From the IMG/VR virus record IMGVR_UViG_3300033066_001794: DNA of 64,000 bases. The stretch is one strand, 5' to 3'. Shown in pieces: positions 13,011 to 56,260 of the stretch (the first letter of the stretch is position 1; every line of letters starts with the position of its first letter). The notes below the pieces were generated by a model. It had not been told where the DNA came from. It saw only the letters and a program-made list of their open reading frames with translations, and ran no database searches. The translations under genes were made by a program, and so were the position numbers. Source of the stretch: an uncultured virus (IMG/VR IMGVR_UViG_3300033066_001794) (taxonomy: Duplodnaviria; Heunggongvirae; Uroviricota; Caudoviricetes).

Positions 13011-14705
13011 TTAATCAATAAACTTGACTATACTAACTTTGCTTTTTGTGTTACTTACTCTAAAAGTTGAAAATGATTTTTTAATATCGCTCCAACCCCA
13101 ACGCCATCTGAGTCCGTTGTTTTTTGCTACTTTGTAAAATCCTACCCACTCCTTACAATCTTTAAAAATCTGAACATCTCCTTGCTTCAACTCAATTTTT
13201 TGTTGAGTAATTAGCACATTCATAGTGTCAGATATTGTACCTGTAATTTGTGGGTAAAATAGCCCCTTTTTGTACTTAAACATTCCTCTTCGACAAATTT
13301 CAATTGCTGCATTTGTCGCATCAAAATATTCGTACATAATATTTCCAATAAAAGATGTGTACACAGGAATTATCGGAATTAACTCGATTCCATGAGCCTT
13401 ACATCGCTTTTCAATTTGCCATTCAGTAATTTTTCTATGCCAAATATTTCTTACTTTTCTGTTTGCTTCTGATGAATTAAATGCTTCATTTTTAGCAATT
13501 CCATCAACATCTTCTTTTACAAAACAAGCTACCTTATAGTGTGAAGCTATTGAAAATAGTAACTTCCAAGCATTTTGAACTTCGTTGATTCGCTTATTAT
13601 TTTGTTTTATTGTTAGCGGATGGTCTGATGCTAAACCTAATTTTTCATTAAGTAAACTTAAATTTATTACACCTTTTTCAATGATTTTTTTAATTCCATC
13701 CTCACCTCTATCTGCCACGCAATACCCAATAAAATCAGGGTTTATATCAACTGCAATAAATCTGTTTTCTATTTTACCAAATAATTTTTTAATCTTCAAA
13801 TCGTCGTGATATTTTTTGTAAACAGCTTTTATAATTTCTGTTTTTTCAACATCAGATAATTCTTTTTCTTTGATTAATTTTACTTCTTTTCTGCGCTCTT
13901 TTTCATCAACGTAATATCCTGAAAGTACTTCATCATCAAATGAAACACAGATTTGATTAGTTGAAATTTGAAGTGTTATTGATAGTTCTTTTCTATCAAT
14001 AAAATCTTTTATTTTTAAAAATTCTTCTTTTTGTTTTTTAGAACACGAATATTTTATTTCAATTATTTTTCCTTTGAATGGCTTGTAAAATATGGTGTTA
14101 TTAGCGAAATCAAAATCAAAAAATCTATTTCCAATTTGATTAGCTTCACCTAAAATATAAAAATGAAGAATCCTGTTTTGATGAAATAATTTCGTTTGTT
14201 TATCAATGTTTGATTGATTTTCTGATAACAATAATTTTCGTTTTTCTTCGCTAATTTCTTTGTCATTTTCGATAACAAAAACATTATTGTAAAGCTTTGT
14301 TAACGCATGTAAATTTTCTTTTCCACCAAAAGTAATATCACAAGTAAGTGAGTGTTCAAGTTCTTTAATTTTATTGTAAGTCTTGAATTTTTTACGAGTA
14401 TTATTATTTGACTTATCCTTTGTTTGTAAGTCTTTCAGCGTTGATGTAAGTTCAATAATTCTTTGTTCCTTATCACTTTTATTCGTCGCTGTTTGCGCTA
14501 ATTTTGAATTAACTTCAGACTTCAAAGACCTAAATTCAATCTCAGTTAACTTGTATTTTTCCTTTAATTTTTCTTGAAATTCTTTGTTATCAATATTGTC
14601 AAAATGTTTATAAAGCTTACGAAAAGCACAGCTATAATTAACTTGTTTTTCCAAAATAAATTCAGAATCAGAACACGATTTAATATTTAAAGCTATTGTT
14701 TTCAT
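13011..14705 (-). CDS. tnpB: TnpB/Cas12f-like RuvC nuclease (likely start MKTIALN)
   Basis: RuvC-I FIAVDINP, RuvC-II FVKED, YTS..FDATNAAIEI RuvC-III; no Cys4 Zn finger. Confidence 0.75.
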   Translation of the reverse strand: MKTIALNIKSCSDSEFILEKQVNYSCAFRKLYKHFDNIDNKEFQEKLKEKYKLTEIEFRSLKSEVNSKLAQTATNKSDKEQRIIELTSTLKDLQTKDKSNNNTRKKFKTYNKIKELEHSLTCDITFGGKENLHALTKLYNNVFVIENDKEISEEKRKLLLSENQSNIDKQTKLFHQNRILHFYILGEANQIGNRFFDFDFANNTIFYKPFKGKIIEIKYSCSKKQKEEFLKIKDFIDRKELSITLQISTNQICVSFDDEVLSGYYVDEKERRKEVKLIKEKELSDVEKTEIIKAVYKKYHDDLKIKKLFGKIENRFIAVDINPDFIGYCVADRGEDGIKKIIEKGVINLSLLNEKLGLASDHPLTIKQNNKRINEVQNAWKLLFSIASHYKVACFVKEDVDGIAKNEAFNSSEANRKVRNIWHRKITEWQIEKRCKAHGIELIPIIPVYTSFIGNIMYEYFDATNAAIEICRRGMFKYKKGLFYPQITGTISDTMNVLITQQKIELKQGDVQIFKDCKEWVGFYKVAKNNGLRWRWGWSDIKKSFSTFRVSNTKSKVSIVKFID

Positions 14706-14715
14706 TTGGTAAATG

Positions 14716-14843
14716 AGCCTTCTCACAAGCAGGTTGCTATAATCATAACCTAATTGAAAAGGAGGGATTCCTGCTTGCTTGAAGGTTTATTTTAAATATT
14801 TTTTATTGTTTTCAATTTGGTTAATTATAGCGAAACAAATATA
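14716..14843 (-). promoter_or_regulatory. TATATTTG promoter plus conserved structured leader (copy A)
   Basis: AACCTTCAAGCAAGCAGGAATC...AACCTGCTTGTGAGAAGGCT; shared with 23381 and 44406. Confidence 0.85.
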
Positions 14844-26043: not shown

Positions 26044-26154
26044 ATGACACGCAGAAACATTATAGTTAGAAATATGTGGATTGAACGCACGGGCGATAAG
26101 GCGTGTATTCATGGGGCTTCTGTTTATGGTTTAATTACAATCATGGGATTATAA
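26044..26154 (+). CDS. leader peptide 1 (MTRRNIIVRNMWIERTGDKACIHGASVYGLITIMGL)
   Basis: Manual translation; between promoter and terminator; codon content matches cluster 1 tRNAs. Confidence 0.8.
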   Translation: MTRRNIIVRNMWIERTGDKACIHGASVYGLITIMGL

Positions 26155-26177
26155 TAAAAACATAAAAATACAAACGG

Positions 26178-26207
26178 AAGCCTCAACCTAAAAAGTTGGG
26201 GCTTTTT
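26178..26207 (+). terminator. attenuator terminator 1
   Basis: AAGCCTCAAC/GTTGGGGCTT + T run; alternative pairing 26113-26125 with 26172-26184. Confidence 0.85.
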
Positions 26208-26214
26208 GTTTTAC

Positions 26215-26312: not shown

Positions 26313-27020
26313 ATGGGTGTTAATAGAAAAATAACAATTGAGCAATCAAATTTTGCTAAAAAAATGATTAAAGAAGGATTTACGTATATGCAAATATCGG
26401 AAGAATTAAATCTTACATGGGGATTGATAAAAAATCATTTGAATAGAGAAGGATACTACTCTGAAAACTTGAAAAGGAAAATTATTGAGTGTCTAAATTG
26501 TGGAAATTCTATTAGTAATATTGATTTTATTAATGGTAAACGTGTTGTAAGAACTAAATTTTGTAATAATTCTTGTTCAGCTTCATTTTCTAATAAATTT
26601 AGAATCAGAAATAAAAAAAAAGAAAAGCCGAAATGCGTGAATTGTGAGGGTGAGTGTAAAACTAATTTTACAAAATATTGTTCTGTTATTTGTCACTCTG
26701 ATTACAGGAATAAAAAATTAATTGAAAGGATAAATAATAATGATACAGATGGATTGAGCGATGTTGTATTAAAGAGAATTATGATATTAATGTATGGTGA
26801 AAAGTGTATGAAGTGTGGTTGGAACGAAATAAATGAGACAACAAAAAAAGTTCCAATTGAACTAAATCACAAAGATGGAAATTCTAAAAATAATAATTCT
26901 CATAATGTTGAATTAATTTGCCCGAATTGTCATTCATTAACACCAAATTATAAAGCTTTAAATAAAGGTAATGGAAGACATAGTAGAAGACAAAGAGCAA
27001 GAGATGGTAAGTCATATTAG
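26313..27020 (+). CDS. HNH endonuclease with Zn-finger repeats (likely start MGVNRK)
   Basis: CMKCG..IELNHKDGNSKNNNSHNVELICPNCH. Confidence 0.85.
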   Translation: MGVNRKITIEQSNFAKKMIKEGFTYMQISEELNLTWGLIKNHLNREGYYSENLKRKIIECLNCGNSISNIDFINGKRVVRTKFCNNSCSASFSNKFRIRNKKKEKPKCVNCEGECKTNFTKYCSVICHSDYRNKKLIERINNNDTDGLSDVVLKRIMILMYGEKCMKCGWNEINETTKKVPIELNHKDGNSKNNNSHNVELICPNCHSLTPNYKALNKGNGRHSRRQRARDGKSY

Positions 27021-27091
27021 CCGTAATAGTTTAGTCGGTAAAACAATAGATTTGTAATCTATATTCGAGGGTTCGATTCCTTCTCACGGCT
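27020..27091 (+). tRNA. tRNA-Thr(TGT)
   Basis: Cloverleaf; ATAGA-TTTGTAA-TCTAT; GTTCGATTC. Confidence 0.9.
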
Positions 27092-27154
27092 CAAAAAGAT
27101 TCCTCCCCATAAAAGCAGATATAGTGCGGGGACTTGCAGCAAGGAATCTTATAT

Positions 27155-27227
27155 TGCAATATAGCTCAGGTGGTAGAGCGTTTGGTTCATATCCAAAATG
27201 TCGAAAGTTCGAATCTTTCTATTGCGA
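27155..27227 (+). tRNA. tRNA-Met(CAT), probably elongator
   Basis: TTTGG-TTCATAT-CCAAA. Confidence 0.85.
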
Positions 27228-27280
27228 CAGTTTTAGTTCTTTGAAATATTAAAAATATCATTCGGGTTTTCCTGAATTGA

Positions 27281-27591
27281 TTAGAATGAGTTACCTGTGA
27301 GTGTCATTGAGAAAAAGGGGCTTCGAGCCTTGACATGATGAAATAGAAACTCTATGAAAAAAATAAATGAATGTAGCCGAAAAACAGGACTGCTCCAAAT
27401 TTGGATGAAACTAAAATTGTCTATAACTTAGATGAGCAGAGGTTTCAGGGCGGAACAAGACCGAAAAGCGCAAAACCTTTTCTTCGTTGGAGGCTATACG
27501 ATTTTATTTTGGAAGTGGAGAAACACTTTTGGAAATCCTTCCTGTGCGGTTGGAGAAAACGCAAAGAAGCACACATGCGTTCTCATTTTTA
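27281..27591 (+). ncRNA. candidate ~310-nt structured RNA, family unknown
   Basis: Closing AGAATGAG/CTCATTTT and many nested stems; GC-richer than flanks. Confidence 0.55.
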
Positions 27592-27601
27592 AGTATTAAA
27601 T

Positions 27602-27674
27602 TGGAAATTAGCTCATTTGGTAGAGCAGCACCCTGATAAGGTGCAGGTGTCAAGTTCGAAACTTGAATTTCCAA
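27602..27674 (+). tRNA. tRNA-Ile(GAT)
   Basis: GCACC-CTGATAA-GGTGC. Confidence 0.92.
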
Positions 27675-27688
27675 CGTTAAAAATATAG

Positions 27689-27763
27689 TGCGGGATAGAG
27701 CAGGGTTAGCTCGTTGGGTTCATATCCCAAAGGTCGGGTGTTAGAGTCACCCTCCCGCTACCA
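27689..27763 (+). tRNA. tRNA-fMet(CAT)
   Basis: 1:72 mismatch, three G-C pairs in anticodon stem, encoded CCA. Confidence 0.88.
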
Positions 27764-27775
27764 ATTGAAAAAAAA

Positions 27776-27847
27776 GTATAGATGGCTGAGTGGCTAAGCA
27801 CTTCACTGTTAATGAAGGTTACAGAGGTTCGAACCCTTTTCTATACG
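27776..27847 (+). tRNA. tRNA-Asn(GTT)
   Basis: CTTCA-CTGTTAA-TGAAG. Confidence 0.9.
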
Positions 27848-27872
27848 CAAATAGTTCTTTAAAATAAAAAAT

Positions 27873-27947
27873 AGTTATGTAGTTCAGCTCGGTTAGAATG
27901 CTACCCTGTCACGGTAGAGGTCGTGGGTTCGAGTCCCATCATAACTG
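27873..27947 (+). tRNA. tRNA-Asp(GTC)
   Basis: CTACC-CTGTCAC-GGTAG. Confidence 0.93.
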
Positions 27948-27957
27948 CAAAAAAAAC

Positions 27958-28042
27958 GCAAGTGCTAATACAATGGAGAGATGGATAGACTCCAAATCTG
28001 TTGCCCGAAAGGGATGTGTAGGTTCGACTCCTGCCGCTTGTG
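27958..28042 (+). tRNA. tRNA-Trp(CCA) with long variable arm
   Basis: ATAGA-CTCCAAA-TCTGT; variable region TGCCCGAAAGGGATGT. Confidence 0.8.
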
Positions 28043-28150
28043 CAAAAGAGTGTGATTTAATAATAGGCTCAAAGCCTTGCTGAAGCGGTGTTCAGTGTAG
28101 GAAGTTAGCTTTAAATTATGCTCTTAAAATATTAATTATTAAATTTGTAA

Positions 28151-28459
28151 ATGGAGTTAGGTAAAATCGAATTTTGCAGAATAGGTCAGAAGCAAAGATG
28201 TGGCACTACAAAATGTGAATGGAAAAAAGCTTTCAATCACTATTGTTGGCTCAGAGAACCTGAAGTGAAAAAATGTGAAGGAAACATTCATAGCGAAGAA
28301 AAGAAACCATTAGTTAAAAAGAGAAAAGGAAGAGTAGTAAAAGAAGAATTAAAGTACACAGAAATAAAACCTCACAAAGAAATTAAAGAGGTTGAATTTG
28401 AAAATAAATTTAAAACAGCATCCACTGATAATTGGATTAAAAAAATAAAAACATTATGA
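28151..28459 (+). CDS. hypothetical basic protein in tRNA cluster
   Basis: ORF track. Confidence 0.55.
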   Translation: MELGKIEFCRIGQKQRCGTTKCEWKKAFNHYCWLREPEVKKCEGNIHSEEKKPLVKKRKGRVVKEELKYTEIKPHKEIKEVEFENKFKTASTDNWIKKIKTL

Positions 28460-28507
28460 AAACAAAATTAGAAAAAATGGAATCAGACGAACCTTTTGAG
28501 ATTAAAT

Positions 28508-28579
28508 GCTCGGTTCGTCTAAGAGTAAGGACGTACTCCTTTCAAGGGTAAAATACGGTGGCAGAACCCGTACCGAGTA
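28508..28579 (+). tRNA. tRNA-Glu(TTC), atypical T-loop
   Basis: TACTC-CTTTCAA-GGGTA; acceptor GCTCGGT/ACCGAGT. Confidence 0.8.
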
Positions 28580-28609
28580 CAATTATTTAGTTCTTTGAAA
28601 ATATAAAAA

Positions 28610-28774
28610 TTGGTTATTAGTAACTCAGCACCCTAAGTGCAATAATTGATAAGCTACACAAATTTTTTGTGGTTAGAATTATCCGCAACTTAGATTAGTG
28701 AAAACTAAAATAAAGCGAGGGATTAATTATGTGGGAGGCGGCATAACTCCTAGAAAGCTGAAGCTGATAACCAA
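28610..28774 (+). ncRNA. candidate ~165-nt multibranch RNA
   Basis: TTGGTTATTAG/CTGATAACCAA and TCAGC/GCTGA closing stems, four internal arms. Confidence 0.55.
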
Positions 28775-28777
28775 CAT

Positions 28778-28849
28778 GCGAAATTCGTATAGTGCTTATT
28801 ACACTTCACTTCCAATGAAGATACATCAGTTGAATTCTGATATTTCGCT
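28778..28849 (+). tRNA. tRNA-Gly(TCC)
   Basis: CTTCA-CTTCCAA-TGAAG. Confidence 0.85.
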
Positions 28850-28860
28850 CAAATAAAAAT

Positions 28861-28934
28861 GACCATGTAGCTAATGTTGGCTTTGGCACACGTCTGCAAA
28901 ACGTGAAACACCTGTTCAATTCAGGTCATGGTCT
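28861..28934 (+). tRNA. tRNA-Cys(GCA)
   Basis: CACGT-CTGCAAA-ACGTG; U73. Confidence 0.88.
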
Positions 28935-28991
28935 CGCTCGTTTGCCCGAAAGGGTTTGTGTGGAGATAGCTACGAAGCATAACAAGAACGA

Positions 28992-29061
28992 TTGGCAGTG
29001 GTGTACGTTGCACGATGGGCGCATAACCCATAGGAGATTGTGTTGAATTCCTTCCTGCTGA
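28992..29061 (+). pseudogene. degenerate tRNA-like element with CAT anticodon arm
   Basis: ATGGG-CGCATAA-CCCAT, poor T arm. Confidence 0.45.
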
Positions 29062-29090
29062 AACTTATTGATTAATAAAAAAAAGTAAAA

Positions 29091-29129
29091 ATGAACAGAA
29101 GAGTAAAATACGAATATGGTTGTTGTTAG
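29091..29129 (+). CDS. 12-aa uORF MNRRVKYEYGCC
   Basis: Paralog at 29360-29398. Confidence 0.55.
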   Translation: MNRRVKYEYGCC

Positions 29130-29150
29130 GTAAACTAACAATTATACCAA

Positions 29151-29357
29151 ATGAAAAAATCAAAAGAATTAAAAAATCTTGTTGACCCAAGAGCTTACAG
29201 ATTATTAACTACCATTGACCAAGACCCTTACAGAGAAGAGTGTTGGAGTACACATCGAGCAGGTGGTACATTTAAGTGGAAGAAAAAAAGATTATACAAA
29301 TTTCAATACAGAATGTATAGAACTTGGAAGTATAACAGAAAAACTAAATACAAGTAA
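29151..29357 (+). CDS. small basic protein (..WKYNRKTKYK)
   Basis: ORF track; C-terminus similar to 29416-29586. Confidence 0.7.
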   Translation: MKKSKELKNLVDPRAYRLLTTIDQDPYREECWSTHRAGGTFKWKKKRLYKFQYRMYRTWKYNRKTKYK

Positions 29358-29359
29358 AA

Positions 29360-29398
29360 ATGAACAGGAGATGTAAATACGAATTTGGCTGCGGTTAG
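29360..29398 (+). CDS. 12-aa uORF MNRRCKYEFGCG
   Basis: Paralog of 29091-29129 with synonymous differences. Confidence 0.55.
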   Translation: MNRRCKYEFGCG

Positions 29399-29415
29399 TT
29401 TAAAAACTAATCGAA

Positions 29416-29586
29416 ATGAAACCAAAAAAAACAATGAGTGAAACTGTTGATAGTTCAACTTTTAAAAAGGTTTATTACATGATGGTATGTGATTGTCCGA
29501 AATGTCCTCCAAATAAAGGATGTAACAAAAACAGAAAAAAGTATCAAAAGAATTGGAAAAAATTTAGAAGCACAAAATGGAAGTAA
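29416..29586 (+). CDS. 56-aa basic Cys-rich protein (not in ORF track)
   Basis: MKPKKTMSETVDSSTFKKVYYMMVCDCPKCPPNKGCN..NWKKFRSTKWK. Confidence 0.65.
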   Translation: MKPKKTMSETVDSSTFKKVYYMMVCDCPKCPPNKGCNKNRKKYQKNWKKFRSTKWK

Positions 29587-29666
29587 AAAATAAAAATAGA
29601 AAAGCGCATAGATTCAAACTATAAGCCATTAGCTAAGCTTCGCTAGTGGTGATAACCTTGAAAGCT

Positions 29667-29912
29667 ATGAAGAATTTAAGTCGTGCCTATAACAGGTACA
29701 AACAAGAAACAAAATTTAAAAGACGTGTTAAAAATTGGTTCGCTCATCCATCTTGGAATGACGAAAAAGAAATTAAGAAAGCATTAACAGGAAATGGTTA
29801 TACTTTTTTAAAAACAACAAGCAGACCTTGTAATTGTTTTATGTGCAGCGGTGATAATAAATACAAGCGCACACAGAAGAATAAAGTCATAAGAGATGCA
29901 TTGAGAGAATAA
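29667..29912 (+). CDS. small basic protein with PCxCxMC motif
   Basis: LKTTSRPCNCFMCS; likely start MKNLSRA. Confidence 0.6.
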   Translation: MKNLSRAYNRYKQETKFKRRVKNWFAHPSWNDEKEIKKALTGNGYTFLKTTSRPCNCFMCSGDNKYKRTQKNKVIRDALRE

Positions 29913-29921
29913 TATTAATTA

Positions 29922-29994
29922 GTTCCTTTAGCTCAGGGGTAGAAGCATTCGGCTCATAACCGACAGGTCACTTGTTCGATTCAAGTAGGGAACA
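29922..29994 (+). tRNA. tRNA-Ile2(CAT, lysidine type) or Met
   Basis: TCGG-CTCATAA-CCGA and acceptor resemble bacterial Ile2. Confidence 0.8.
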
Positions 29995-30086
29995 CGACTA
30001 GGTTACAAAGTGTATGAGTAAGTAACATGGGTATTGTGGTAACGTAGTATTGGCGCACATGGTTGACAATAACACTCATACATAAA

Positions 30087-30161
30087 GGGGCATTGGCTGA
30101 GATAGGCGATGGCGATTCATTTGCAATGAATAAAACGGGGATTCAAGTTCCTCATGCTCCA
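30087..30161 (+). tRNA. tRNA-Ala(TGC)
   Basis: G3-U70; ATTCA-TTTGCAA-TGAAT. Confidence 0.88.
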
Positions 30162-30171
30162 CAAAAAATAT

Positions 30172-30247
30172 TGGGATATAGCTTAGCTCGGTCTAAAGCA
30201 GTAGTATTACAAACTACCTATCGTTGGTTCAAATCCATCTATCCCAA
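30172..30247 (+). tRNA. tRNA-Val(TAC)
   Basis: GTAGT-ATTACAA-ACTAC. Confidence 0.85.
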
Positions 30248-30275
30248 CTTAAATAAAAAAAATATAAAAAAACCA

Positions 30276-30338
30276 ATGTTAGTTACTAGAAACATAAAAT
30301 CTTTATCTTCTTTTTTGCGAAAGCGAAAGAGTAAGTAA
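30276..30338 (+). CDS. 20-aa micro-ORF MLVTRNIKSLSSFLRKRKSK
   Basis: Paralog at 30447-30509; A-rich upstream. Confidence 0.5.
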   Translation: MLVTRNIKSLSSFLRKRKSK

Positions 30339-30348
30339 TTATTTATAT

Positions 30349-30425
30349 GCGTCAGTAGCTCAGTTGGTAGATGCACCTCACTTTTAATGAGGGGGTCGGG
30401 AGTTCGAGTCTCCCCTGTCGCACCA
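30349..30425 (+). tRNA. tRNA-Lys(TTT)
   Basis: CCTCA-CTTTTAA-TGAGG; encoded CCA. Confidence 0.93.
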
Positions 30426-30446
30426 CTTTTAATGTAAAAAAAATAA

Positions 30447-30509
30447 ATGTTAACTACAAGGCACATAAGAACTTTCATCACTTCTCGCAGATTGCGAAGA
30501 GGTAGATGA
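30447..30509 (+). CDS. 20-aa micro-ORF MLTTRHIRTFITSRRLRRGR
   Basis: Paralog of 30276-30338. Confidence 0.5.
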   Translation: MLTTRHIRTFITSRRLRRGR

Positions 30510-30515
30510 TTGTAT

Positions 30516-30606
30516 GTTCCCGTAGCATAAATGGATAATGCACAAAACTTCTAATTTTGCTTTCTTTTTAAGAATCATGCAGGTTCGAATCCTGTCGGGA
30601 ATTCCA
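30516..30606 (+). tRNA. tRNA-Arg(TCT) with long variable arm
   Basis: CAAAA-CTTCTAA-TTTTG; variable region CTTTCTTTTTAAGAATCAT; CCA. Confidence 0.85.
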
Positions 30607-30608
30607 AA

Positions 30609-30682
30609 CTTTCAGTAGCTCAAATGGATAGAGCATCGCACTACGAATGCGAAGGTTGAGTGTTCGAGTCATTCCTGAAAGA
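30609..30682 (+). tRNA. tRNA-Arg(ACG)
   Basis: TCGCA-CTACGAA-TGCGA. Confidence 0.9.
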
Positions 30683-30777
30683 CTTATTTTATATGTTAAT
30701 AACTTTTTTACTTGTAATATCAAAAATGTTATTATATTTGCATTCAGTCAATACGGTCAAATTAAATCAAATTATTA

Positions 30778-39321: not shown

Positions 39322-39409
39322 TTTTATTTCGCTCATTTTCAATTTAATATGATTTTAATTAAAAATAAATTTTGCGGATAAATAAATAATCCTTTACTTT
39401 GCATCCATT

Positions 39410-39478
39410 ATGAAAAATTTATCACTACATAGTTCGTTGTATCTAAGCCCAAAAGGTTCAGGTGACTTTCTATTGTAG
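39410..39478 (+). CDS. leader peptide 2 (MKNLSLHSSLYLSPKGSGDFLL)
   Basis: Follows TTTG..TTACTTTGC promoter-like motif; codons match cluster 2 tRNAs. Confidence 0.8.
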   Translation: MKNLSLHSSLYLSPKGSGDFLL

Positions 39479-39504
39479 TTAAACATATTTGTTTACATGA
39501 TAAG

Positions 39505-39534
39505 AACCCTGAACTGAAAAGTTTGGGGTTTTTT
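39505..39534 (+). terminator. attenuator terminator 2
   Basis: AACCCTGAAC/GTTTGGGGTT + TTTT; GGTTCAGG (39455) can sequester the left arm. Confidence 0.85.
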
Positions 39535-39566: not shown

Positions 39567-39654
39567 GGTGAATGTGCGTGAGTGGTCGAAACGAGTAGAT
39601 TGTGGTTCTACTGATATGTAAATATCCACGAGGGTTCAAATCCCTTCATTTACC
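39567..39654 (+). tRNA. tRNA-His(GTG) with long variable arm
   Basis: G-1/C73; GTAGA-TTGTGGT-TCTAC; GATAT-GTAA-ATATC arm. Confidence 0.85.
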
Positions 39655-39659
39655 CAAAA

Positions 39660-39743
39660 GGAGAGTAAACCTATCAGGGTAGGCGCAACCTGCTAAGTTG
39701 TCGGCTCGGTTAAACGAGTGTGGGTCACGACCACTGCTCTCCG
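39660..39743 (+). tRNA. tRNA-Ser(GCT)
   Basis: GCAAC-CTGCTAA-GTTGT; long arm; G73. Confidence 0.8.
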
Positions 39744-39769
39744 CAAAAAAAAAGTTCTTTAAATAAATT

Positions 39770-39852
39770 GGAAGGAGGCGACCATTGGTGGTCAACAAGA
39801 CTTGAAATCTTGAGCGGTCAGAAATGACAGGGTTCGATTCCTACTCTTTCCG
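39770..39852 (+). tRNA. tRNA-Ser(TGA)
   Basis: CAAGA-CTTGAAA-TCTTG; long arm; G73. Confidence 0.85.
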
Positions 39853-39860
39853 CAATAAAC

Positions 39861-39944
39861 TGAGATACGCTAGAGTTGGAGAGCTAGGTTGGTCTGTAAA
39901 ACCAATGTCTTATGACTGATTCGGTTCGATTCCGAATATCTCAA
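39861..39944 (+). tRNA. tRNA-Tyr(GTA)
   Basis: TTGGT-CTGTAAA-ACCAA. Confidence 0.88.
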
Positions 39945-39949
39945 CAAAT

Positions 39950-40032
39950 ACCCGTATGGTGGAATGGAATACACATAGGTCTTAAAAACCTACGCCCTTT
40001 GAGGATTGCAAGTTCAAGTCTTGTTACGGGTA
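39950..40032 (+). tRNA. tRNA-Leu(TAA)
   Basis: TAGGT-CTTAAAA-ACCTA. Confidence 0.9.
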
Positions 40033-40047
40033 CTAAAAAAATAAAGA

Positions 40048-40398
40048 ATGAAAACATATAGAAAAAACAGAACCCAATGTGCTAAATTATTTAGTGTAAA
40101 CGGAATTTCAATGTTAGGTTTTTTAGTTGGAGAACAGGATAACAAACAAACTTTTGAAACATTAAAAGGAGAAAGAGTAAATGTATCTACTATTAAAAAC
40201 TCAGAAGGTAAAATAGAGGATATTGGCGATGAAATAGTTGAAATAACACTTGCTTATAAAAGAGTTACAAATACAAAAACAGGGATAATAACAACAACTC
40301 CATTTGGAAATGTTATAACTAAAAATAGTGTTGGAGGTAAAATTATGCGAACTCCGAAAGATGTTTTATGTACAAATAAATTAATTAAAGTCAATTAA
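40048..40398 (+). CDS. hypothetical protein in tRNA cluster 2
   Basis: ORF track. Confidence 0.6.
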   Translation: MKTYRKNRTQCAKLFSVNGISMLGFLVGEQDNKQTFETLKGERVNVSTIKNSEGKIEDIGDEIVEITLAYKRVTNTKTGIITTTPFGNVITKNSVGGKIMRTPKDVLCTNKLIKVN

Positions 40399-40408
40399 AA
40401 AAATATAT

Positions 40409-40489
40409 GCGAGCATGGTGGAATGGCAGACACACATGATTTAGAATCATGCGCAGAAATGCATGAGGTTTCGAGTACCTCTGCTCGTA
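40409..40489 (+). tRNA. tRNA-Leu(TAG)
   Basis: CATGA-TTTAGAA-TCATG. Confidence 0.88.
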
Positions 40490-40493
40490 CTTT

Positions 40494-41446: not shown

Positions 41447-41505
41447 TTAAAAAAATAATTGAAAATAAATTTGGTAGATTGAAAAACATTTCTTTACTTT
41501 GCATC

Positions 41506-41598
41506 ATGAAAACAACAAACGTATACTTTCAACAATTTTTCCCTCAACAACCGCAGTTTAGATTGCGATTGTCAGGAAGTTCTTGTCCGTGTGCGTGA
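41506..41598 (+). CDS. leader peptide 3 (MKTTNVYFQQFFPQQPQFRLRLSGSSCPCA)
   Basis: Directly after TTACTTTGC promoter-like motif; F/Q/P run matches cluster 3 tRNAs. Confidence 0.8.
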   Translation: MKTTNVYFQQFFPQQPQFRLRLSGSSCPCA

Positions 41599-41623
41599 GA
41601 AAATATATCACAAACAAACAATG

Positions 41624-41653
41624 AAGACCCTGACTAATTATCAGGGTTTTTTT
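41624..41653 (+). terminator. attenuator terminator 3
   Basis: AAGACCCTGA/TCAGGGTTTT + T run; GTCAGG..TCTT (41571-41584) can pair with the left arm. Confidence 0.85.
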
Positions 41654-41686
41654 ATGTTCAAAAAATAGTTCTTTAAAATAAAATAA

Positions 41687-41762
41687 CGCAATGTACGGAA
41701 GTTTGCTTTTTCCGACCAAGTTTGGGACTTGGGAAGCGCAGGTTGAAATCCTGCCATTGCGA
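41687..41762 (+). tRNA. tRNA-Pro(TGG)
   Basis: CCAAG-TTTGGGA-CTTGG. Confidence 0.85.
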
Positions 41763-41768
41763 CAACAT

Positions 41769-41841
41769 CAGGGTATATATCAATTGGTAGATTACTCGCT
41801 TTGGATGCGAGAGGTTGTAGATTCGAGTTCTGCTACCCTGA
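41769..41841 (+). tRNA. tRNA-Pro(TGG), second divergent copy
   Basis: CTCGC-TTTGGAT-GCGAG. Confidence 0.82.
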
Positions 41842-41889
41842 CTTAGGTAATAATAATTTAACAACAAACAATAGGCTGAAAAGCCTTAT

Positions 41890-41963
41890 GTGGTGGTAGC
41901 TGAGTTGGTTCAAGCGTCAGACTGAAAATCTGAAGTAGGTCGGTTCGATTCCGACACATCACA
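41890..41963 (+). tRNA. tRNA-Phe(GAA)
   Basis: TCAGA-CTGAAAA-TCTGA. Confidence 0.9.
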
Positions 41964-42009
41964 CTTGTTTTTTTTGTATATTTGTTTTCTGAAAATAAAA
42001 TATATGAAC

Positions 42010-42082
42010 TGCCTTATAGTGTAACTGGCAACACGCTTGATTTTGATTCAAGAGACTCTACGTTCGAGCCGTAGTGAGGCAA
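42010..42082 (+). tRNA. tRNA-Gln(TTG)
   Basis: CTTGA-TTTTGAT-TCAAG; U1-A72. Confidence 0.9.
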
Positions 42083-42114
42083 CTAATTAGTAGTAAATAA
42101 CATAAATTAATTGA

Positions 42115-42827: not shown

Positions 42828-44399
42828 TCATACAAAGTTGTACAAAATTGTACTACTTTTTTGACTCATAAAATTACGTTCTGAAGACTTGGTTTTATCC
42901 AACTCCTGTCGGTATCTCAATCCCGACTTCTTGAAAAGTTTAAATGCCTCTACCCAAGTTGAAATATTTTTATTCTGAACATCCAAACCTAATCGGTACA
43001 TGGTGTCAAAATCGATTCCCTCAAGCTTTGGGTAGAAAAAACTTCCTCCAAGATATTTTGTGATGCCCCTTCTCGCAACTTCGATGGCAGCATTAACAGG
43101 GTCGAAAAAACCATGCTTTATATTGCCAATGAAACTGCTGTAACAGGCGTTCACCCCAATCAGTTTTATGCCGATTGTGTTACAATGTTTTTTAATTAAA
43201 TTTGTTGTTAACGTTCTGTGCCAAATGTTTAATGTTTGTCTGTTTGCCTCGTTAGCATTGTTATTCAAGAGTTCTTGCTTGAAAAATAAATCTTCAATGG
43301 CACAATTTGAAACTTTAAAATGAGCAGCAACTTTAAAAATATATTTCCAAACACAACTAATTTCATGAATACGTTTGTTGTTTTGTTTGATTTGTTTTTT
43401 ATCAGTTGAACTCAAATTTAATTTCGTGTTCAAACCTTTTAGCGAAATACATTCTTTATAAATTATTTTAAATGAATCATCCGAATCACTTAGTCTATCA
43501 ATGATTACAAAGGCAATGTATTCAGGATTCAAATCAAAAGCAATAAATCTTCCGATAATTTTACCTGCAATCATTCTTAATTCTTGCTCCTTAATCCACT
43601 TTTTATAACAATCTTTTCGTGCAGTCTTAAACTCTTTCGGAATATGTTTTAAATCTTTTTTATACTCATTTTTATCGAATGAAAAACCATTTAATTTTTC
43701 TTCATCAAATGAAATCCAAATATTATTATTATCAAGTTTAACTGAAATAGGTTGCTCACCAATCTGTTTCTGTAACTGAATTAATTGCTCATACTGATTT
43801 TTACTGCAATGAAATTCAATAGGCATTTTTACTCCATGTTTAGGTTTGAAAACAACTTTTTTATTTGTAAAATCAAAGTCAAATTTACGATTACCTTTAT
43901 TATTGGCTTCTCCTATCACCGAATAAGCTAAAATTCTATTTTCTTTAAATTGTAATTTTACTTTTTTGAGAAGTCTTTTTCTAATTCGATTATTTTTTTG
44001 ACCTTTAGTTTTATTGCTTAAAAAACTTATTTTTCTAATCAAAGCCTTAGTCCCAAAAACAATATCCTTTCCATTATTTGCTTGTAAATAAGCTATTTTT
44101 CGTATCACTTTATACTTGTGTCTTTTACTTTCAAACTCAGTAATAGCAAGCAATTCTTCTAACTTTTTTTCTTTTTTAAGTGTGTTAGTTTCAAACTGAG
44201 CAAGTTTCATTTTAACTTCAACAGTACAACTTTGGTATTCCCAACTATCAACATTAAATTTTTCACGAACTTTTTTTATGAAATTTTCATCAACACTTTG
44301 GTCAAAATTAAAATACAATTCATGAAATAATCCTGAATAATTTCGGCAATATTCCGAAACATCATATTCATTTTTTGTTTTTAATTTTAGTGTTATCAT
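42828..44399 (-). CDS. tnpB: TnpB/Cas12f-like RuvC nuclease (likely start MITLKLK)
   Basis: FIAFDLNP, CAIEDL, YSSFIGN..FDPVNAAIEV; clear paralog of 13011-14705. Confidence 0.75.
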   Translation of the reverse strand: MITLKLKTKNEYDVSEYCRNYSGLFHELYFNFDQSVDENFIKKVREKFNVDSWEYQSCTVEVKMKLAQFETNTLKKEKKLEELLAITEFESKRHKYKVIRKIAYLQANNGKDIVFGTKALIRKISFLSNKTKGQKNNRIRKRLLKKVKLQFKENRILAYSVIGEANNKGNRKFDFDFTNKKVVFKPKHGVKMPIEFHCSKNQYEQLIQLQKQIGEQPISVKLDNNNIWISFDEEKLNGFSFDKNEYKKDLKHIPKEFKTARKDCYKKWIKEQELRMIAGKIIGRFIAFDLNPEYIAFVIIDRLSDSDDSFKIIYKECISLKGLNTKLNLSSTDKKQIKQNNKRIHEISCVWKYIFKVAAHFKVSNCAIEDLFFKQELLNNNANEANRQTLNIWHRTLTTNLIKKHCNTIGIKLIGVNACYSSFIGNIKHGFFDPVNAAIEVARRGITKYLGGSFFYPKLEGIDFDTMYRLGLDVQNKNISTWVEAFKLFKKSGLRYRQELDKTKSSERNFMSQKSSTILYNFV

Positions 44400-44405
44400 A
44401 AAAAG

Positions 44406-44536
44406 AGCCTTCTTACAGATAGGTTTGCACAATCAAAAACTCATGAGAGAAGAGATTCCTATCTGCTTGAAGGTTTATTTTAAATATTTATTTTTGTGAT
44501 TTTCATGAGTTTAATTAATTGTGCATTGCAAATATA
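44406..44536 (-). promoter_or_regulatory. TATATTTG promoter plus conserved structured leader (copy C)
   Basis: AACCTTCAAGCAGATAGGAATC...AACCTATCTGTAAGAAGGCT. Confidence 0.85.
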
Positions 44537-44637
44537 TAAATAATAACTAAATTTACCAAATATTAATTAAAATATTAACTATTACTCACGATATTTCTGC
44601 TTTTGTTATTTTGTTTAATTTTTGTTTGTTCTAAAAT

Positions 44638-46561: not shown

Positions 46562-48010
46562 TTACATATTTTGCTTGATGCGCTCACGAATTTCAGTTAG
46601 TGTAGTTTCATGAAGGATTTTTCCATCTTTGAATATAGTTTTCAATAAACCTGTTTTTTCTTCTTCATCAGTACATTGTTCTATTGTTATGTATTCGCTT
46701 CCTTCTTTTTTTAAATACATCAATCCTTTGTGAGACTTCTTTTTACTGTCAGTAATAGGGTCTTTTTCAATTTCTCTTTTTTCGCCATTTACTTCAACAT
46801 ACGTAGCTTTAATTGCAAATCCTAAAGTATCTCTACTGTGATTACGAAGTATTCCACCTACGCCAATTACTAAATTACTTGATGCGTAACCCATTTCCTT
46901 CAATCTATCTAAAGTCCTTATGTATCTTTCTAAGTACATTCCATCTCCGTATATAATTCCTACCTTTGGATTAATTACTTTATATCCTTTTTCATTTAAT
47001 GTAGAGCCAAACTTTTCATCTAAAAGTCTTATAGCTCCTTTCCATTCATTGCTGCCTATTTCAGCAGTAGGGTCTCCACATATTATGTATTCAGGATTTC
47101 CACTATCAGGTCTGAATACAGTCTTTCCATCACGAGATAATATTTCATCTTTAAGAATATCAGCGAATTCAGTTAAAACACGATATACATTAAAAGTATC
47201 TGAAACCATACTCACTATGCCGCTTGGATATAACTTTAACATGTTTTTAAATGAAGCTAATTCATCGTCTTTTCCAAATGAACAAACTACACTATGTTCA
47301 GATGCAGGTACACTGAACATTATTGGCTCATCTATTTTTGCATGATAGTATTTTAACATAAATGGTAAAGCAGGAACGGTGTCACTACCTAAAAATGAAA
47401 GTAGATGAGCTGCACCACTTATAGCCGCACCCTCTTCACTTCCATCGCCTCTATATCCAAAATCATGTACAGTGAAGTCTTTTAAAAACATCATATCCTC
47501 CGAAACTGTCTCTTTGAAATATTTATCTACAATACTTCTGTATTTAAGGCAGCATGAAGCTACAGTTATACTATACCAAAGCTTTAAAAGAAGGCTCTCA
47601 ACATAACCAACAGCCCAATGAAAATCAGGATGTGTACTCTGTATAGTCATCAATACATTTCTAACAGGCATGATTGTCCCTTCTTCAACTGCTTTAATCT
47701 CAATTGGGAAATAACCCAATTTACATAATGCACGAATTTGATGCTCCACTGCTTCTGAATTACTACCCAAAATAGCTTTTCTATATACTAGAAACTCTTC
47801 TCCCATTTCGGGTGTAATTTTAGTAGAAAGATATTCTTTTAAATAATATTGTAATCCGAAAAATAATGTTTTATCAAAAGTTTTGTCAGTACGTGCTATT
47901 AAGTATGAATATACTTTATTACAATTAGGAACATACTGTTCCATGTGTCCCATTTTATAAACGTCTAATGCTAATAATGGGTTCTCCTTTGTGTTTGATG
48001 CTGTTTTCAT
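46562..48010 (-). CDS. nadV: nicotinamide phosphoribosyltransferase-family enzyme (Nampt/Namat-like)
   Basis: DVYKMGH, HDFGYRG, VPASEHS, SDTF, RPDSG, GIIYGDG, KDPITD. Confidence 0.92.
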   Translation of the reverse strand: MKTASNTKENPLLALDVYKMGHMEQYVPNCNKVYSYLIARTDKTFDKTLFFGLQYYLKEYLSTKITPEMGEEFLVYRKAILGSNSEAVEHQIRALCKLGYFPIEIKAVEEGTIMPVRNVLMTIQSTHPDFHWAVGYVESLLLKLWYSITVASCCLKYRSIVDKYFKETVSEDMMFLKDFTVHDFGYRGDGSEEGAAISGAAHLLSFLGSDTVPALPFMLKYYHAKIDEPIMFSVPASEHSVVCSFGKDDELASFKNMLKLYPSGIVSMVSDTFNVYRVLTEFADILKDEILSRDGKTVFRPDSGNPEYIICGDPTAEIGSNEWKGAIRLLDEKFGSTLNEKGYKVINPKVGIIYGDGMYLERYIRTLDRLKEMGYASSNLVIGVGGILRNHSRDTLGFAIKATYVEVNGEKREIEKDPITDSKKKSHKGLMYLKKEGSEYITIEQCTDEEEKTGLLKTIFKDGKILHETTLTEIRERIKQNM

Positions 48011-48038
48011 TTTTATTGATTTAGGTAAAATATTTAAT

Positions 48039-48263
48039 TCAATAATCTTCAATGAACTTAAATCTATCTTCAACTGATGCTGTAAAGATAACGATATAAG
48101 CTCCTATTTCGTATGCTTTTTTTACTAAATCTATTGTCCTGTCAATATCTTTTTTATTGTCTAAAGTATGGTATGGATAAATAGTTGAATCAAAATCAAC
48201 GGCTAAAATTATCTTTCCGTGCGTTCTCCATTCAATAAGTAATCTTTGTGAGTAAATATTCAT
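48039..48263 (-). pseudogene. truncated HAD-family fragment
   Basis: ILAVDFDSTI motif I and IFTA motif II only; 74 aa. Confidence 0.5.
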
Positions 48264-48277
48264 ATTTCTATTTTTTA

Positions 48278-49168
48278 TTAAATATCAATTAATTCAACAA
48301 TAGGGATAACCTTTACAAATTCATTATCTACTTTTCCTATTGAATCTGTAGTGTAAACTCTTTCTATTCCACTTTCTTTTAATTTTGAAATATCAGCAGA
48401 ACCTTCGTAGTGGGAAACGATTAAATATATTTTACCTGCATTTCGTTTTTTTAATTCACTTGCAAGCCCCATGAACGTTCCACCTCTGCTACAAATATCG
48501 TCCACTAGTATAACTGAACGACCTTCTAAATCAGCTTTATCAACGGAGTAAGCTAAAATCTTCCCATCGTTTAGATTACGTGCCTTGTTACATATAACAA
48601 TATCATCTTTGTATCCTAATTCAGAAGCAAGTTTGAATATCTTTTTGAAAGCACCTCCGTCAACAGAAACTAGTAAAGGATTACCTCCAATATCTTCTAG
48701 GCATGTTTTTACAAAATCAACATTGCTTATTACATGGATGTTTTTCTCTAGTAATGTAGTTGATATTTCACTATGCGGGTCAAAAACAAATATTCTGTTA
48801 AAATCACATGATTTAAGCATGTCTGTGAATACTTTTAATGAGAATGGTTCTCCTTCTACCATAACTCTATCTTGTCTTGCATAAGGGAGGTATGGAATGA
48901 ATAAACTATTGTTCTTGTATCCCATTCTAACTAGAGCATCGTTTGTTAAGAGTATTCTCATAATATCATCAGAACTATTTGCACGAGCGAATATTGTTAC
49001 TTCATTTGATGGATATGCTATATTACCATTGTCGTTTAATTTAACATGAACCTCACCCCCTAAGAAGTTAAATGTTTCTGCTGATATTGAGTGATATGTT
49101 GCGATTTCGAATCTACTTTTAGGTGTACTGAAGTCAGGAAACCCATTTAGAAATAATACTGTTTTCAT
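48278..49168 (-). CDS. prs: ribose-phosphate pyrophosphokinase-family enzyme (Prs/Adps-like)
   Basis: PYLPYARQDR, DPHS, LVDDICSRGGTF. Confidence 0.9.
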   Translation of the reverse strand: MKTVLFLNGFPDFSTPKSRFEIATYHSISAETFNFLGGEVHVKLNDNGNIAYPSNEVTIFARANSSDDIMRILLTNDALVRMGYKNNSLFIPYLPYARQDRVMVEGEPFSLKVFTDMLKSCDFNRIFVFDPHSEISTTLLEKNIHVISNVDFVKTCLEDIGGNPLLVSVDGGAFKKIFKLASELGYKDDIVICNKARNLNDGKILAYSVDKADLEGRSVILVDDICSRGGTFMGLASELKKRNAGKIYLIVSHYEGSADISKLKESGIERVYTTDSIGKVDNEFVKVIPIVELIDI

Positions 49169-53443: not shown

Positions 53444-54139
53444 TTATCTGACTAATGATTTAGGTATTTCATCTTTTTCAATAGTCTTTTTAAATCCAAT
53501 ATTTGCAGCAACATGGAACGTTATAATTCCTTCAGGCTTCATAAACCCTTCTGAAGCATAACTGCCATGAATCTTCAATTCTTCTAAAACTTCATTAATC
53601 TTTTGAGTATCAAATTGACCTCTATAAAGTTCAGGAACGAGCGAGCAAATTTCAGGGAGTACATCCTGAAACTTTTCAATTGTTGGGTCAGCATTTGGAA
53701 TTAATTTAGGCTGTGTTCCATGCAATGCCCATCTACTAACATTAAATAGTGAAAATCTTTTATCGCCTTTCTGTAATCCGTATCCTCTTTGTATACCGCT
53801 TCCCCACCATTCACCAAAATGTCTACCATCATTTAGTTCAATTAATTTTTCTGAATTTTCAAATACCCATTTTGAAAAACCATAATTGTCATCCTTTGGT
53901 GTAATCCAACGGGTTCTACTACCTGTTGCAATATGCAAATTACCATCTGAGTATATGAAAGGAATATTATCAGGTTTTTTACCTTTTTTTTGCACTGTAC
54001 CATCTTCGATTTTAATATCTTTTTCTTCATCCCAAATAAAAATTTGAGAATTAGTTCCATCTATTTTTTCAGTAATAATCATCTCTCTCGAAAGCCTAGC
54101 CATCTTAGGAAATTCTAAAAAATCTAAATTTTGTGTCAT
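53444..54139 (-). CDS. RNA ligase, Rnl2-like adenylyltransferase domain
   Basis: TEKIDGTN, SR, FGEWWG, PEGII. Confidence 0.85.
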   Translation of the reverse strand: MTQNLDFLEFPKMARLSREMIITEKIDGTNSQIFIWDEEKDIKIEDGTVQKKGKKPDNIPFIYSDGNLHIATGSRTRWITPKDDNYGFSKWVFENSEKLIELNDGRHFGEWWGSGIQRGYGLQKGDKRFSLFNVSRWALHGTQPKLIPNADPTIEKFQDVLPEICSLVPELYRGQFDTQKINEVLEELKIHGSYASEGFMKPEGIITFHVAANIGFKKTIEKDEIPKSLVR

Positions 54140-54150
54140 ATTATTTATTT

Positions 54151-55790
54151 TTAATCGTTTAAAAAATGCGGGATAAATATACCTTGATTACATCCAACTA
54201 CAGGGATTAAATCATTACTCATGATGTTTAATTCCGATTTGAATGGGTGATTTTTAAGTTTCATGTACCAATCTTTATGTGGTGAGAAATCTAATTGCTT
54301 AGTTGTATCAATTATTTCGCTTGAGTATTCGCTTCCTCCAATAAAATGCATAACCTCTTTCTTTAACTCTACTAGGCAGTGAAATCCGCCATTGGTTTTA
54401 ATGAATTTTAGGTATCCTTTATTGATAACTGATTCGATATATTTTTTTATTTCAATATAATCTTCTCCTTCTTTAATATCCACATCAATATCCATGAAGT
54501 TTTTAGTTCCATTAGAGCCTTGAATAACATCATTTGCCATTGATTTAACATTGATATTTTCTTTGTTTGACTTGATTGCCTCTAAACACTGATTAATTAA
54601 CTCAAAACAAGCCTTGTGTTGATTCTTAGGATTAAATCCAATATAAACACCTAAGTTTTTAATATCAATAGGAGTACCATTACTATCATAACCACCTTCT
54701 TCAATTTCCCATTGTTTTATAGTAGGAATGATTTTATCTTTTCTCCCAACAGTTTCTCTTCTTAGTTTATGTGCAGAAGCTATCCCGCTTTCAGGAAACC
54801 ATTTTTTACGAGCAATAAGAATAAGAAAATAACCCTCGTTAGGATTAAGTTCAGGCAGGAAGTCAACAAACTTTTGTAGTTCTTCTTCGTTATGGATTAA
54901 TTTATAGTTCATTGTATTGTTTTTTTCTTTTTTGACAATCCGTGTTTTTCTAAAAGTTTATCTCCTAATAACTCGCCTCTGTCAACCATATCCTCGTACA
55001 AAAATGACCTTCTGCATGGAACTTCTAATGGGTCGAATTCTTTCTCTTCAAAAACGTTATTAGCTTCTAAAAACATTTTTTTTAATTCATCAGGAATATC
55101 TGTTTCTTCTAATATTGCATAGTCCTGTTCAAACGGGTTTTTTCCTATGCATATAATCTTTTCTGAAACTAAAACATATTGCCCCCCTCTATATTCCAAA
55201 AATTTAATTTCAGAATTTTCAACCCATTCATCAGGAAAATCAATACGTAGCTTCTCCCTTATTTTTTTAAGGATAGCTATTTCCATAGAAATAAAAGTGT
55301 TTTTGAATGCTCCATTAGTAAAACAATTGACCGTATTTATTGCAAATATAATTACTATGTTTTTATTACGCAACAATAATAGAAGCAAAGTTATCAACAA
55401 TGATAAAAATAGTTACATTGTTTGATGTTTGAATGTTTTTCCACTTCCGAAATGATAACCTTGACCTGTTTTTAAAAGACTTACATCTCGAATATAATTT
55501 TCAATAGGTTCGTTATATGCTAAGTGTTTTTTACTCATTCCTTGCCAAATATAAATAGTTGTACAAGGGAACTTAGTGAGGCGAGACCATTTAGTTATCT
55601 CGCCCCAAAGTTCTGATGAAAATTTACCGCAGAAAGGATAAATATCTTTTCCATCCCAACCTATGCAATGAATATAATCTGTCTCCAAATTATACTCAAC
55701 AGTCATTATTTCGCATTTCTGTTGCTCATCAAACCATTGATTTACTTTATCTAAAAACTTAGTTATATTTTTTAAGATTTTCGTAATCAT
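54151..55790 (-). CDS. three hypothetical ORFs
   Basis: ORF track. Confidence 0.6.
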
Positions 55791-56260
55791 AATTCCATTG
55801 CTAATTCAGTAAGTACTTTGCCAAGCAAATTTTCACCCCAATTATCTATGTTTTGAATAGCTTCATGGTCATAAAAACCAATTCCCCAAATTCTATCGTA
55901 AGGAGATGCCTCTACTAAAACATATCCTTTATATTTCAAAAGATATTCTTTGAATTCAGGATTTTGAAGAAACTTATCTTTTAGACCTTTTTTTACTAAA
56001 TCATATTTAACATTGTCCCAAACTTTAGGATTGAAATTTTTCACTTGTCTCCCAAGTTCTTTCTGTTTTCTAGGAGATAGTTCTTTTAGTATTTTATTTG
56101 CCGTTTCATTGTCTCCAAATGTAATTGCTTTTTGATACATCATGTATTGTTCACCACAATTAAACATTATGTTGTTAGTAGTGAAATATGATTCGTGCCA
56201 ATTGCTAAACAATCCATTCCAAAAGAATTTGTATTTTATGTTTTTATGTGTTGCTTCCAT
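55787..56260 (-). CDS. NADAR (YbiA-like) family protein
   Basis: FSNW..EQYMMYQKA..LGRQV..KFLQN..VEASPYDRIWGIG..GENLLG. Confidence 0.92.
   Translation of the reverse strand: MEATHKNIKYKFFWNGLFSNWHESYFTTNNIMFNCGEQYMMYQKAITFGDNETANKILKELSPRKQKELGRQVKNFNPKVWDNVKYDLVKKGLKDKFLQNPEFKEYLLKYKGYVLVEASPYDRIWGIGFYDHEAIQNIDNWGENLLGKVLTELAMEL

Follow-up and report, generated by a model that had tools for sequence, protein, structure and literature searches.

A probable leader-peptide attenuator in front of a viral tRNA operon, and leaders of similar design in other phages

The third of three tRNA units in a 64,000-nt stretch of DNA from an uncultured virus (hereafter the window, meaning the whole stretch) comprises a short leader of Phe, Gln and Pro codons, a terminator and a cluster of Pro-Pro-Phe-Gln tRNA genes. 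We consider this unit 3 to be a ribosome-mediated transcription attenuator gating the tRNA operon, with a probability of about 0.85, and the phage probably makes these tRNAs mainly when ribosomes read their codons slowly. An attenuator had been proposed here in a first-pass annotation of the sequence; the proposal finds support in the anatomy of the unit, in a relative, and in a comparison across families that covers many independent leaders.

Organization and conservation of the Phe/Gln/Pro unit

All features of unit 3 lie on the + strand. The leader ORF (41506..41598) has 30 codons with the stop at 41596-41598, and its length and stop are the same in relative G001, the IMG/VR record behind locus L160 (169,658 bp, 82% complete by CheckV). 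Codons 8-18 (41527..41559) form the putative sensor, TTT CAA CAA TTT TTC CCT CAA CAA CCG CAG TTT, which is the run named in the first-pass annotation and is in frame with the ATG at 41506. No longer Phe/Gln/Pro run exists in the six frames of the window, the runner-up having six codons; about 5e-5 runs of at least 11 are expected in the window, and the longest in 100 dinucleotide shuffles did not exceed eight. As had also been claimed, the run of 11 precedes a Pro-Pro-Phe-Gln cluster, ARAGORN calling 3′ of the leader tRNA-Pro(TGG) (41687..41763, also with Rfam), a further tRNA-Pro(TGG) (41769..41842), tRNA-Phe(GAA) (41890..41964) and tRNA-Gln(TTG) (42010..42083). The Pro codons of the sensor are CCT and CCG, an exact match to the TGG anticodon being CCA; CCG is rare in the window (0.07). 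The first tRNA-Pro is atypical, with a long D-stem of six pairs, an altered T-loop and an Rfam score of 47 bits; it is missing at the corresponding place in G001 and unchanged in one contig of run X3.

The predicted Bacteroidota-type promoter consists of TTTG at 41470..41473, which we take to be the -33 element and which is identical in the relative, and of TACTTTGC at 41495..41502, a conserved -7-type box. The latter has the form TAnnTTGY, or may be a degenerate TAnnTTTG, the canonical TAnnTTTG being one base longer. TTTG at 41498-41501 is followed by CATC and then by the ATG, in agreement with the 4-nt spacing noted earlier. In the accessible text of PMC9723704, the TAnnTTTG and TAnnTTGY (SM5) boxes of Flavobacterium psychrophilum lie at -12 to -5 and 5.5% of the mRNAs are leaderless; a box at that distance would place the start of unit 3 on the A of the ATG or at most one base away from it. 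Read as SM5, TACTTTGC gives a +1 at 41507; with the G at -5, the +1 becomes 41506, the A of the ATG. The purine-start rule favours 41506, and a leaderless unit-3 leader is plausible. Such an arrangement does not appear to be general for this class of leaders: in 25 of the 59 families described below a TAnnTTTG box occurs within 80 nt of the leader ATG, the spacing being 16-62 nt in 23 of these and 4-5 nt in two.

GTCAGG at 41571 had been proposed to pair with CCTGAC of the terminator. Both hexamers are present, at 41571..41576 and 41629..41634, the former beginning about 11-12 nt past the last sensor codon; their pairing stands as a prediction of the folding models, in which GTCAGG is the 5′ strand of the antiterminator core and CCTGAC both its 3′ strand and the 5′ arm of the terminator. 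The intrinsic terminator (41623..41653), identified by folding and by a terminator scan that places it at 41623-41651, has a stem formed by CCCTGA (41628-41633) and TCAGGG (41641-41646), followed by seven T (41647-41653). A 1:2 (protector/pause) hairpin of -11.3 kcal/mol is predicted at 41542..41576. Downstream of the terminator lies GTTCTTTAAA (41668..41677), presumably a boxA-like motif; this motif is present in nine copies in the window, seven of them inside the three tRNA operons. For the region 41503-41690 the predicted fold beats 199 of 200 shuffled versions (z -3.17), and the duplex between leader and terminator arm, assessed for unit 3 alone, is modest (z -1.8, p 0.045).

The window and G001 are approximately 90% identical, in blocks of 77-99% of which the longest are 83-93%, and all three units are kept. 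Thirteen of the 93 bases of the unit-3 ORF differ, only one of them, synonymous, among the 36 of codons 9-20; Phe8 of the sensor is lost in G001 and the remaining 10 of 11 residues are kept. A CGA/CAG change shifts a mismatch in the 1:2 hairpin with similar energy (-11.8 kcal/mol in G001). GTCAGG:CCTGAC does not vary between the two full sequences compared and hence has no direct support from compensatory changes. Contigs of two further runs span the leader with six and four letters different; among the differences listed none falls in the sensor or GTCAGG, and a one-base loss at 41597 keeps a stop codon. GenBank phages yielded no close relative, matches being single-tRNA- or promoter-sized only. 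A pattern for the anticodon arm of the atypical tRNA-Pro matched 14 loci, none homologous to unit 3; a peptide pattern requiring TTC before a Pro codon, and missing G001, matched 19 loci, at none of which the motif precedes a tRNA cluster; and a strict unit-3 pattern matched no metagenome contig.

Three units in one genome and their predicted switch

ARAGORN finds 25 tRNA genes in the window, in three clusters, with a 26th (Glu, 28507) at a lower threshold only. Each cluster is preceded by a promoter-like box, a short ORF, a terminator and GTTCTTTRAA. Unit 2 (39410..39533, +) consists of a 22-codon Leu/Ser/His/Tyr leader (39410-39478) and a terminator (39502-39533), followed by tRNA genes for His, Ser, Ser, Tyr, Leu and Leu (39568-40490). 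Unit 1 (26044..26210, +) has a 36-codon leader (26044-26154), a terminator from 26180 and 16 tRNA genes (27020-30683, Glu 28507 included) for the 13 amino acids outside clusters 2 and 3. The 20 amino acids are divided among the three units, no amino acid being common to two clusters. Over codons 5-18, leader 1 matches its own cluster at 14 of 14 residues and the others at none, leader 2 at 10 of 14 (three and one for the others) and leader 3 at 11 of 14 (two and one). The boxes of units 2 (39399-39406) and 3 (41495-41502) are of the SM5-like TAnnTTGY type and that of unit 1 is a canonical TAnnTTTG, which may reflect different promoter classes or timing. An HNH-endonuclease ORF (26313-27020) sits between terminator 1 and the first tRNA gene and would therefore also be under the unit 1 attenuator.

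Folding was modelled with the RNA masked under the ribosome, codon by codon, using either the full terminator or nascent RNA before the 3′ arm emerges. For the full RNA, placing the A site at codons 11-15, 17 and 18 makes the antiterminator, in which GTCAGG:CCTGAC stacks on an inner helix, the minimum-energy fold, and the terminator is the best fold for every ribosome position outside codons 11-18. Terminator probability falls from 0.98 no lower than 0.57-0.82 in the stalled states, the predicted equilibrium switch being modest. The two states are less than 1 kcal/mol apart, and the switch must therefore rest on folding order. In the nascent RNA the terminator 5′ arm is almost fully sequestered (about 1.0) with the ribosome at positions as far as codon 18, and the value is down to 0.02-0.15 once codon 20 or 21 is reached; this arm switch is seen in both the window and the relative with three footprint lengths, and units 1 and 2 likewise switch at the end of their cognate runs. 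When no ribosome is present the nascent arm is held at 0.94 in the window, 0.25 in the relative and about 0.7 in units 1 and 2; given the difference between 0.94 and 0.25, the protector hairpin is not a robust prediction and the default state is uncertain. The hairpin forms in the full-length fold and in the relative and is absent from the nascent fold of the window.

We propose the following cycle, whose switching steps are those predicted by folding. Transcription by host RNA polymerase would begin on the ATG or immediately beside it, and the leader would be translated by a ribosome. With no ribosome over the sensor, the 1:2 hairpin may hold GTCAGG. When Phe, Gln and Pro are decoded fast, the ribosome would pass codon 18 and cover GTCAGG, the terminator would form and an RNA of approximately 145 nt would be released. 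If decoding of any of the three is slow, the ribosome would sit on the sensor, GTCAGG would pair with CCTGAC and transcription would continue past the boxA-like motif into the tRNA genes. The newly made tRNAs would then relieve the stall and close the loop.

Leaders of similar design in other viruses

IMG/VR was scanned for the terminator tail plus boxA-like motif, a search which is blind to ORFs and in which counts are those among the matches listed. Among the matches listed, 93 of 119 and 8 of 40 such viral loci have a tRNA gene no more than 400 nt away. Two extra patterns, one of which presupposes leader-terminator pairing, also supplied loci. The leader was defined as the longest ATG ORF of 14-50 codons whose end falls 40-70 nt ahead of the U tract; clusters had at least three tRNA genes, and terminators less than 250 nt from a locus end were excluded. 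Among the matches listed, redundant copies included, this rule finds an ORF for 118 of 122 terminator-gated clusters; four have none by the rule, and some of the automatic picks match poorly. The same rule finds an ORF at 23 of 152 and 38 of 172 control terminators.

When the matches listed are grouped into 59 rough families, residues 5-22 of the leader match their own cluster at 0.595 compared to 0.316 for shuffled pairs, the maximum in 20,000 pairing shuffles being 0.377. Restricted to the ORF-blind loci, one per locus and with the phage family of the window excluded, the match is 0.583 versus 0.315 (at least 38 families), a value reached in none of 20,000 shuffles, and 28 of 38 families among the matches listed exceed the 90th percentile of foreign leaders. 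The signal is confined to one reading frame (0.529, 0.231 and 0.213 for frames 0, 1 and 2 in 31 small clusters); clusters cut by a locus end reduce the match. The peptides of different families are not related in sequence, and it is their composition and position that track the cluster and the duplex.

The duplex between the leader and the terminator arm beats the shuffle mean in 43 of 45 families, with p≤0.05 in 29; the window contributes two of the rows. Across 48 small-cluster families, the share of cognate codons is 0.63-0.74 at 13 to 5 codons before the duplex, 0.50 at four and three codons, and near background (0.17-0.36) from two codons on. The cognate match thus stops about one ribosome footprint before the terminator-pairing segment, which is the gap that a stalled ribosome would need. 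Of the 278 cognate codons counted, wobble reading accounts for 133 (95.7 expected), exact reading for 105 (123.3) and four-way wobble for 20 (35.2), with 20 unread (23.7). This suggests that leaders are matched to clusters by amino acid and may favour wobble codons such as CCG; RNA pairing may be a further influence on codon choice. Other Pro/Gln/Phe units, with unrelated leaders, are found at L004 (P,P,H,Q), L327 and L025. Attenuated clusters at L003, L019 and L140 include tRNAs with TTA or CTA anticodons, which are possible suppressor tRNAs. Among the matches listed for bacterial genomes, the terminator and boxA-like motif lie within 400 nt of a tRNA gene in 3 of 120 loci; these matches are mostly noise and so do not prove absence from chromosomes. 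At two bacterial loci, L198 and L296, the two elements immediately precede Leu tRNA genes, and the rule finds no leader ORF.

The single cultured phage examined, Cellulophaga phage phi4:1 (KC821632.1; host Cellulophaga baltica), has two such units with the same geometry. The first (L357 5340-5470; about 87040-87195 of KC821632.1), which is unannotated, consists of TAnnTTTG, 4 nt, an ATG at 87065, a 22-codon leader and a terminator; the leader has 11 straight Q/R/L/H/E/P codons and is followed by P, E, Q, H, L, L and R tRNAs. The second (L357 6300-6444; about 87975-88169 of KC821632.1) lies inside the annotated hypothetical gp075 and has a second copy of the promoter, a GTG-started leader (88025) and a terminator; its leader encodes Thr/Lys/Gly/Ile/Val/Asp/Ala/Arg and precedes the remaining tRNA genes. 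Both units switch at the end of the cognate run in the ribosome-mask model. Since phi4:1 is cultured, the attenuation idea can be tested at the bench.

These data bear on three other explanations of unit 3. If the leader were a general sensor of translation stress, of the erm/antibiotic type or a timer of host shut-off, any slowing or absence of ribosomes would open the terminator and codon identity would be secondary. The predicted antitermination of ribosome-free nascent RNA (0.94 in the window, about 0.7 in units 1 and 2) would suit such a sensor, as would unit 1, which with its 13 amino acids is nearly general; however, three differently coded leaders would be needless, and leaders match their own cluster only, in one frame, in dozens of unrelated families, so that we regard this explanation as very unlikely. 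A little less credible again is bypass of the terminator by proteins, either Nus factors at the boxA-like motif or a phage antiterminator, the ORF encoding a trans-acting peptide or being a translation-coupled shield against Rho, with no switch. The small equilibrium switch and the boxA-like motif found after all three terminators are congruent with bypass, but the motif is 3′ of the U tract and, from the way boxA acts, too late to prevent termination there; nor would bypass account for peptides that are unrelated across families and yet follow cluster and duplex in composition and position.

The remaining explanation, a chance ORF in an AT-rich leader before a constitutive terminator, is largely refuted and retains next to no probability. 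Although short ORFs do precede 15-22% of control terminators, the length of the run is far beyond that in shuffles, the ORF is conserved in the relative, and the cross-family match was not attained in any of the 20,000 shuffles.

Known attenuators, the trigger and the genome setting

The trpL, hisL and pheL attenuators, as described in the accessible part of PMC1183508, combine a short ORF carrying regulatory codons with alternative antiterminator and terminator structures, slow decoding leading to read-through. Unit 3 resembles these amino-acid operon leaders in having a short 5′ ORF whose regulatory codons are cognate to the downstream function, an intrinsic terminator between the leader and the controlled genes and a predicted antiterminator that would be exclusive with the terminator and free only with a ribosome on the regulatory codons. 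It differs in being viral and in gating four tRNAs rather than biosynthetic or synthetase genes. Multivalent leaders such as thrL and ilvL are known; unlike in biosynthetic leaders, it is the set of tRNA genes in the operon that brings together three amino acids from unrelated pathways in unit 3. Rfam detects no Phe, His, Trp, Leu or Thr leader family and no T-box in unit 3, either at the gathering score or among 16 matches up to E 10. Judged by its sequence, unit 3 therefore has the anatomy of the class and would work like trpL, hisL and pheL, being neither a member of a named leader family nor a T-box.

The E. coli pheM-pheST operon has a synthetase leader peptide. Attenuators before aminoacyl-tRNA synthetase genes, including hisS paralogues, are treated in PMC2965389, in the accessible text of which the word "phage" does not occur. 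Synthetase leaders and T-boxes likewise control the supply of charged tRNA; unit 3 gates the tRNA genes themselves. The leaderless polycysteine sORF attenuators of mycobacteria (10.1101/834739) also have the sensor ORF at the extreme 5′ end of the RNA, as predicted for unit 3 and unit A of phi4:1; they free a downstream ribosome-binding site and are translational, whereas in unit 3 an intrinsic terminator precedes non-coding genes. Hints of attenuation by leader peptides upstream of amino-acid operons in F. psychrophilum, in the available portion of PMC9723704, make it appear that the host group is able to use this mechanism. Titles, the beginnings of abstracts and full-text searches covering few subscription papers gave no account of leader-peptide control of tRNA genes.

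What the switch would respond to is decoding speed, so that a lost tRNA and a shortage of its amino acid would look alike to it; extra tRNA would cure the former and not the latter. The accessible parts of PMC10264068 and PMC11555353 document both that host tRNAs are depleted upon infection and that phage tRNAs relieve this; T5-like tRNA-Tyr acts there against retron-Eco7, and phage tRNA-Lys against PrrC. As in those phages, replacement of depleted host tRNAs is the likely purpose of the tRNAs of unit 3. The supply in those phages is ascribed, in the same portions, to a strong promoter, whereas that of unit 3 appears conditional and cluster-specific; "attenuat" occurs nowhere in the main text of either paper. 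We lean towards loss, shortage or damage of host tRNA as the trigger that was selected, dilution or undercharging in starved hosts being a more tentative candidate.

It is an evenly balanced question whether a modular tRNA-supply homeostat exists in many phages of Bacteroidota-type hosts, in which the amino acids would be shared out among leader/operon modules, the phage's ribosome traffic would detect cut or depleted host tRNA and only the matching set would be transcribed. If they do, it would be a sensing, inducible, all-RNA counter-defence, for example against anticodon nucleases, and leaders would be rewritten each time a tRNA gene changed operon. The reason why phages have tRNA genes has been an open question for more than 50 years (PMC10264068). 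tRNA genes switched on by slow reading of their own codons would point to on-demand replacement instead of fixed codon compensation, and the leader would name the tRNAs which the phage monitors, offering a direct test. Leader-peptide attenuation would be extended from enzymes to tRNA genes and to viruses, by an element that is common, being found in at least 38 unrelated leader families and in one cultured phage with a known host. Such leaders could be used as reporters of tRNA damage in Bacteroidota.

The window has a G+C content of approximately 30% and is dense in short ORFs. It is most likely part of a large phage, since G001 (169,658 bp) aligns with it over many blocks. Fourteen of 19 proteins scanned, a subset of the ORFs, had PHROG matches, including NAMPT, PRPP kinase, RNA ligase, SSB, HNH nucleases and dNMP kinase; no capsid or terminase gene was named among the 19. 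It is the promoter boxes only that suggest a Bacteroidota host, a similarity search with NAMPT giving matches of about 43% to Gordonia and other phages that are uninformative on this point.

Cluster 1 contains two 20-codon ORFs (30276-30338 and 30447-30509) with Lys/Arg-rich tails directly before tRNA-Lys and tRNA-Arg, with no terminator noticed before the tRNA; in G001 they are identical and conserved at 18 of 20 residues, respectively, and they are possibly a second layer of ribosome-dependent control. It also contains near-identical 12-codon ORFs (29091-29129 and 29360-29398) with Cys-containing tails, each just before a small basic ORF. Two related long ORFs on the - strand, 42828-44432 (534 aa) and 13011-14726 (571 aa), look by eye like IS200/IS605-type TnpB or transposase-associated proteins; the former had no PHROG match and is faced by a Bacteroidota-type promoter at 44527-44560. 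Further - strand genes near the tRNA operons encode a NAMPT and PRPP-kinase pair (46562-49168), an RNA ligase (53444-54139) and a protein that by eye is NADAR-like (55787-56260), a set with a possible role in NAD and RNA-repair counter-defence.
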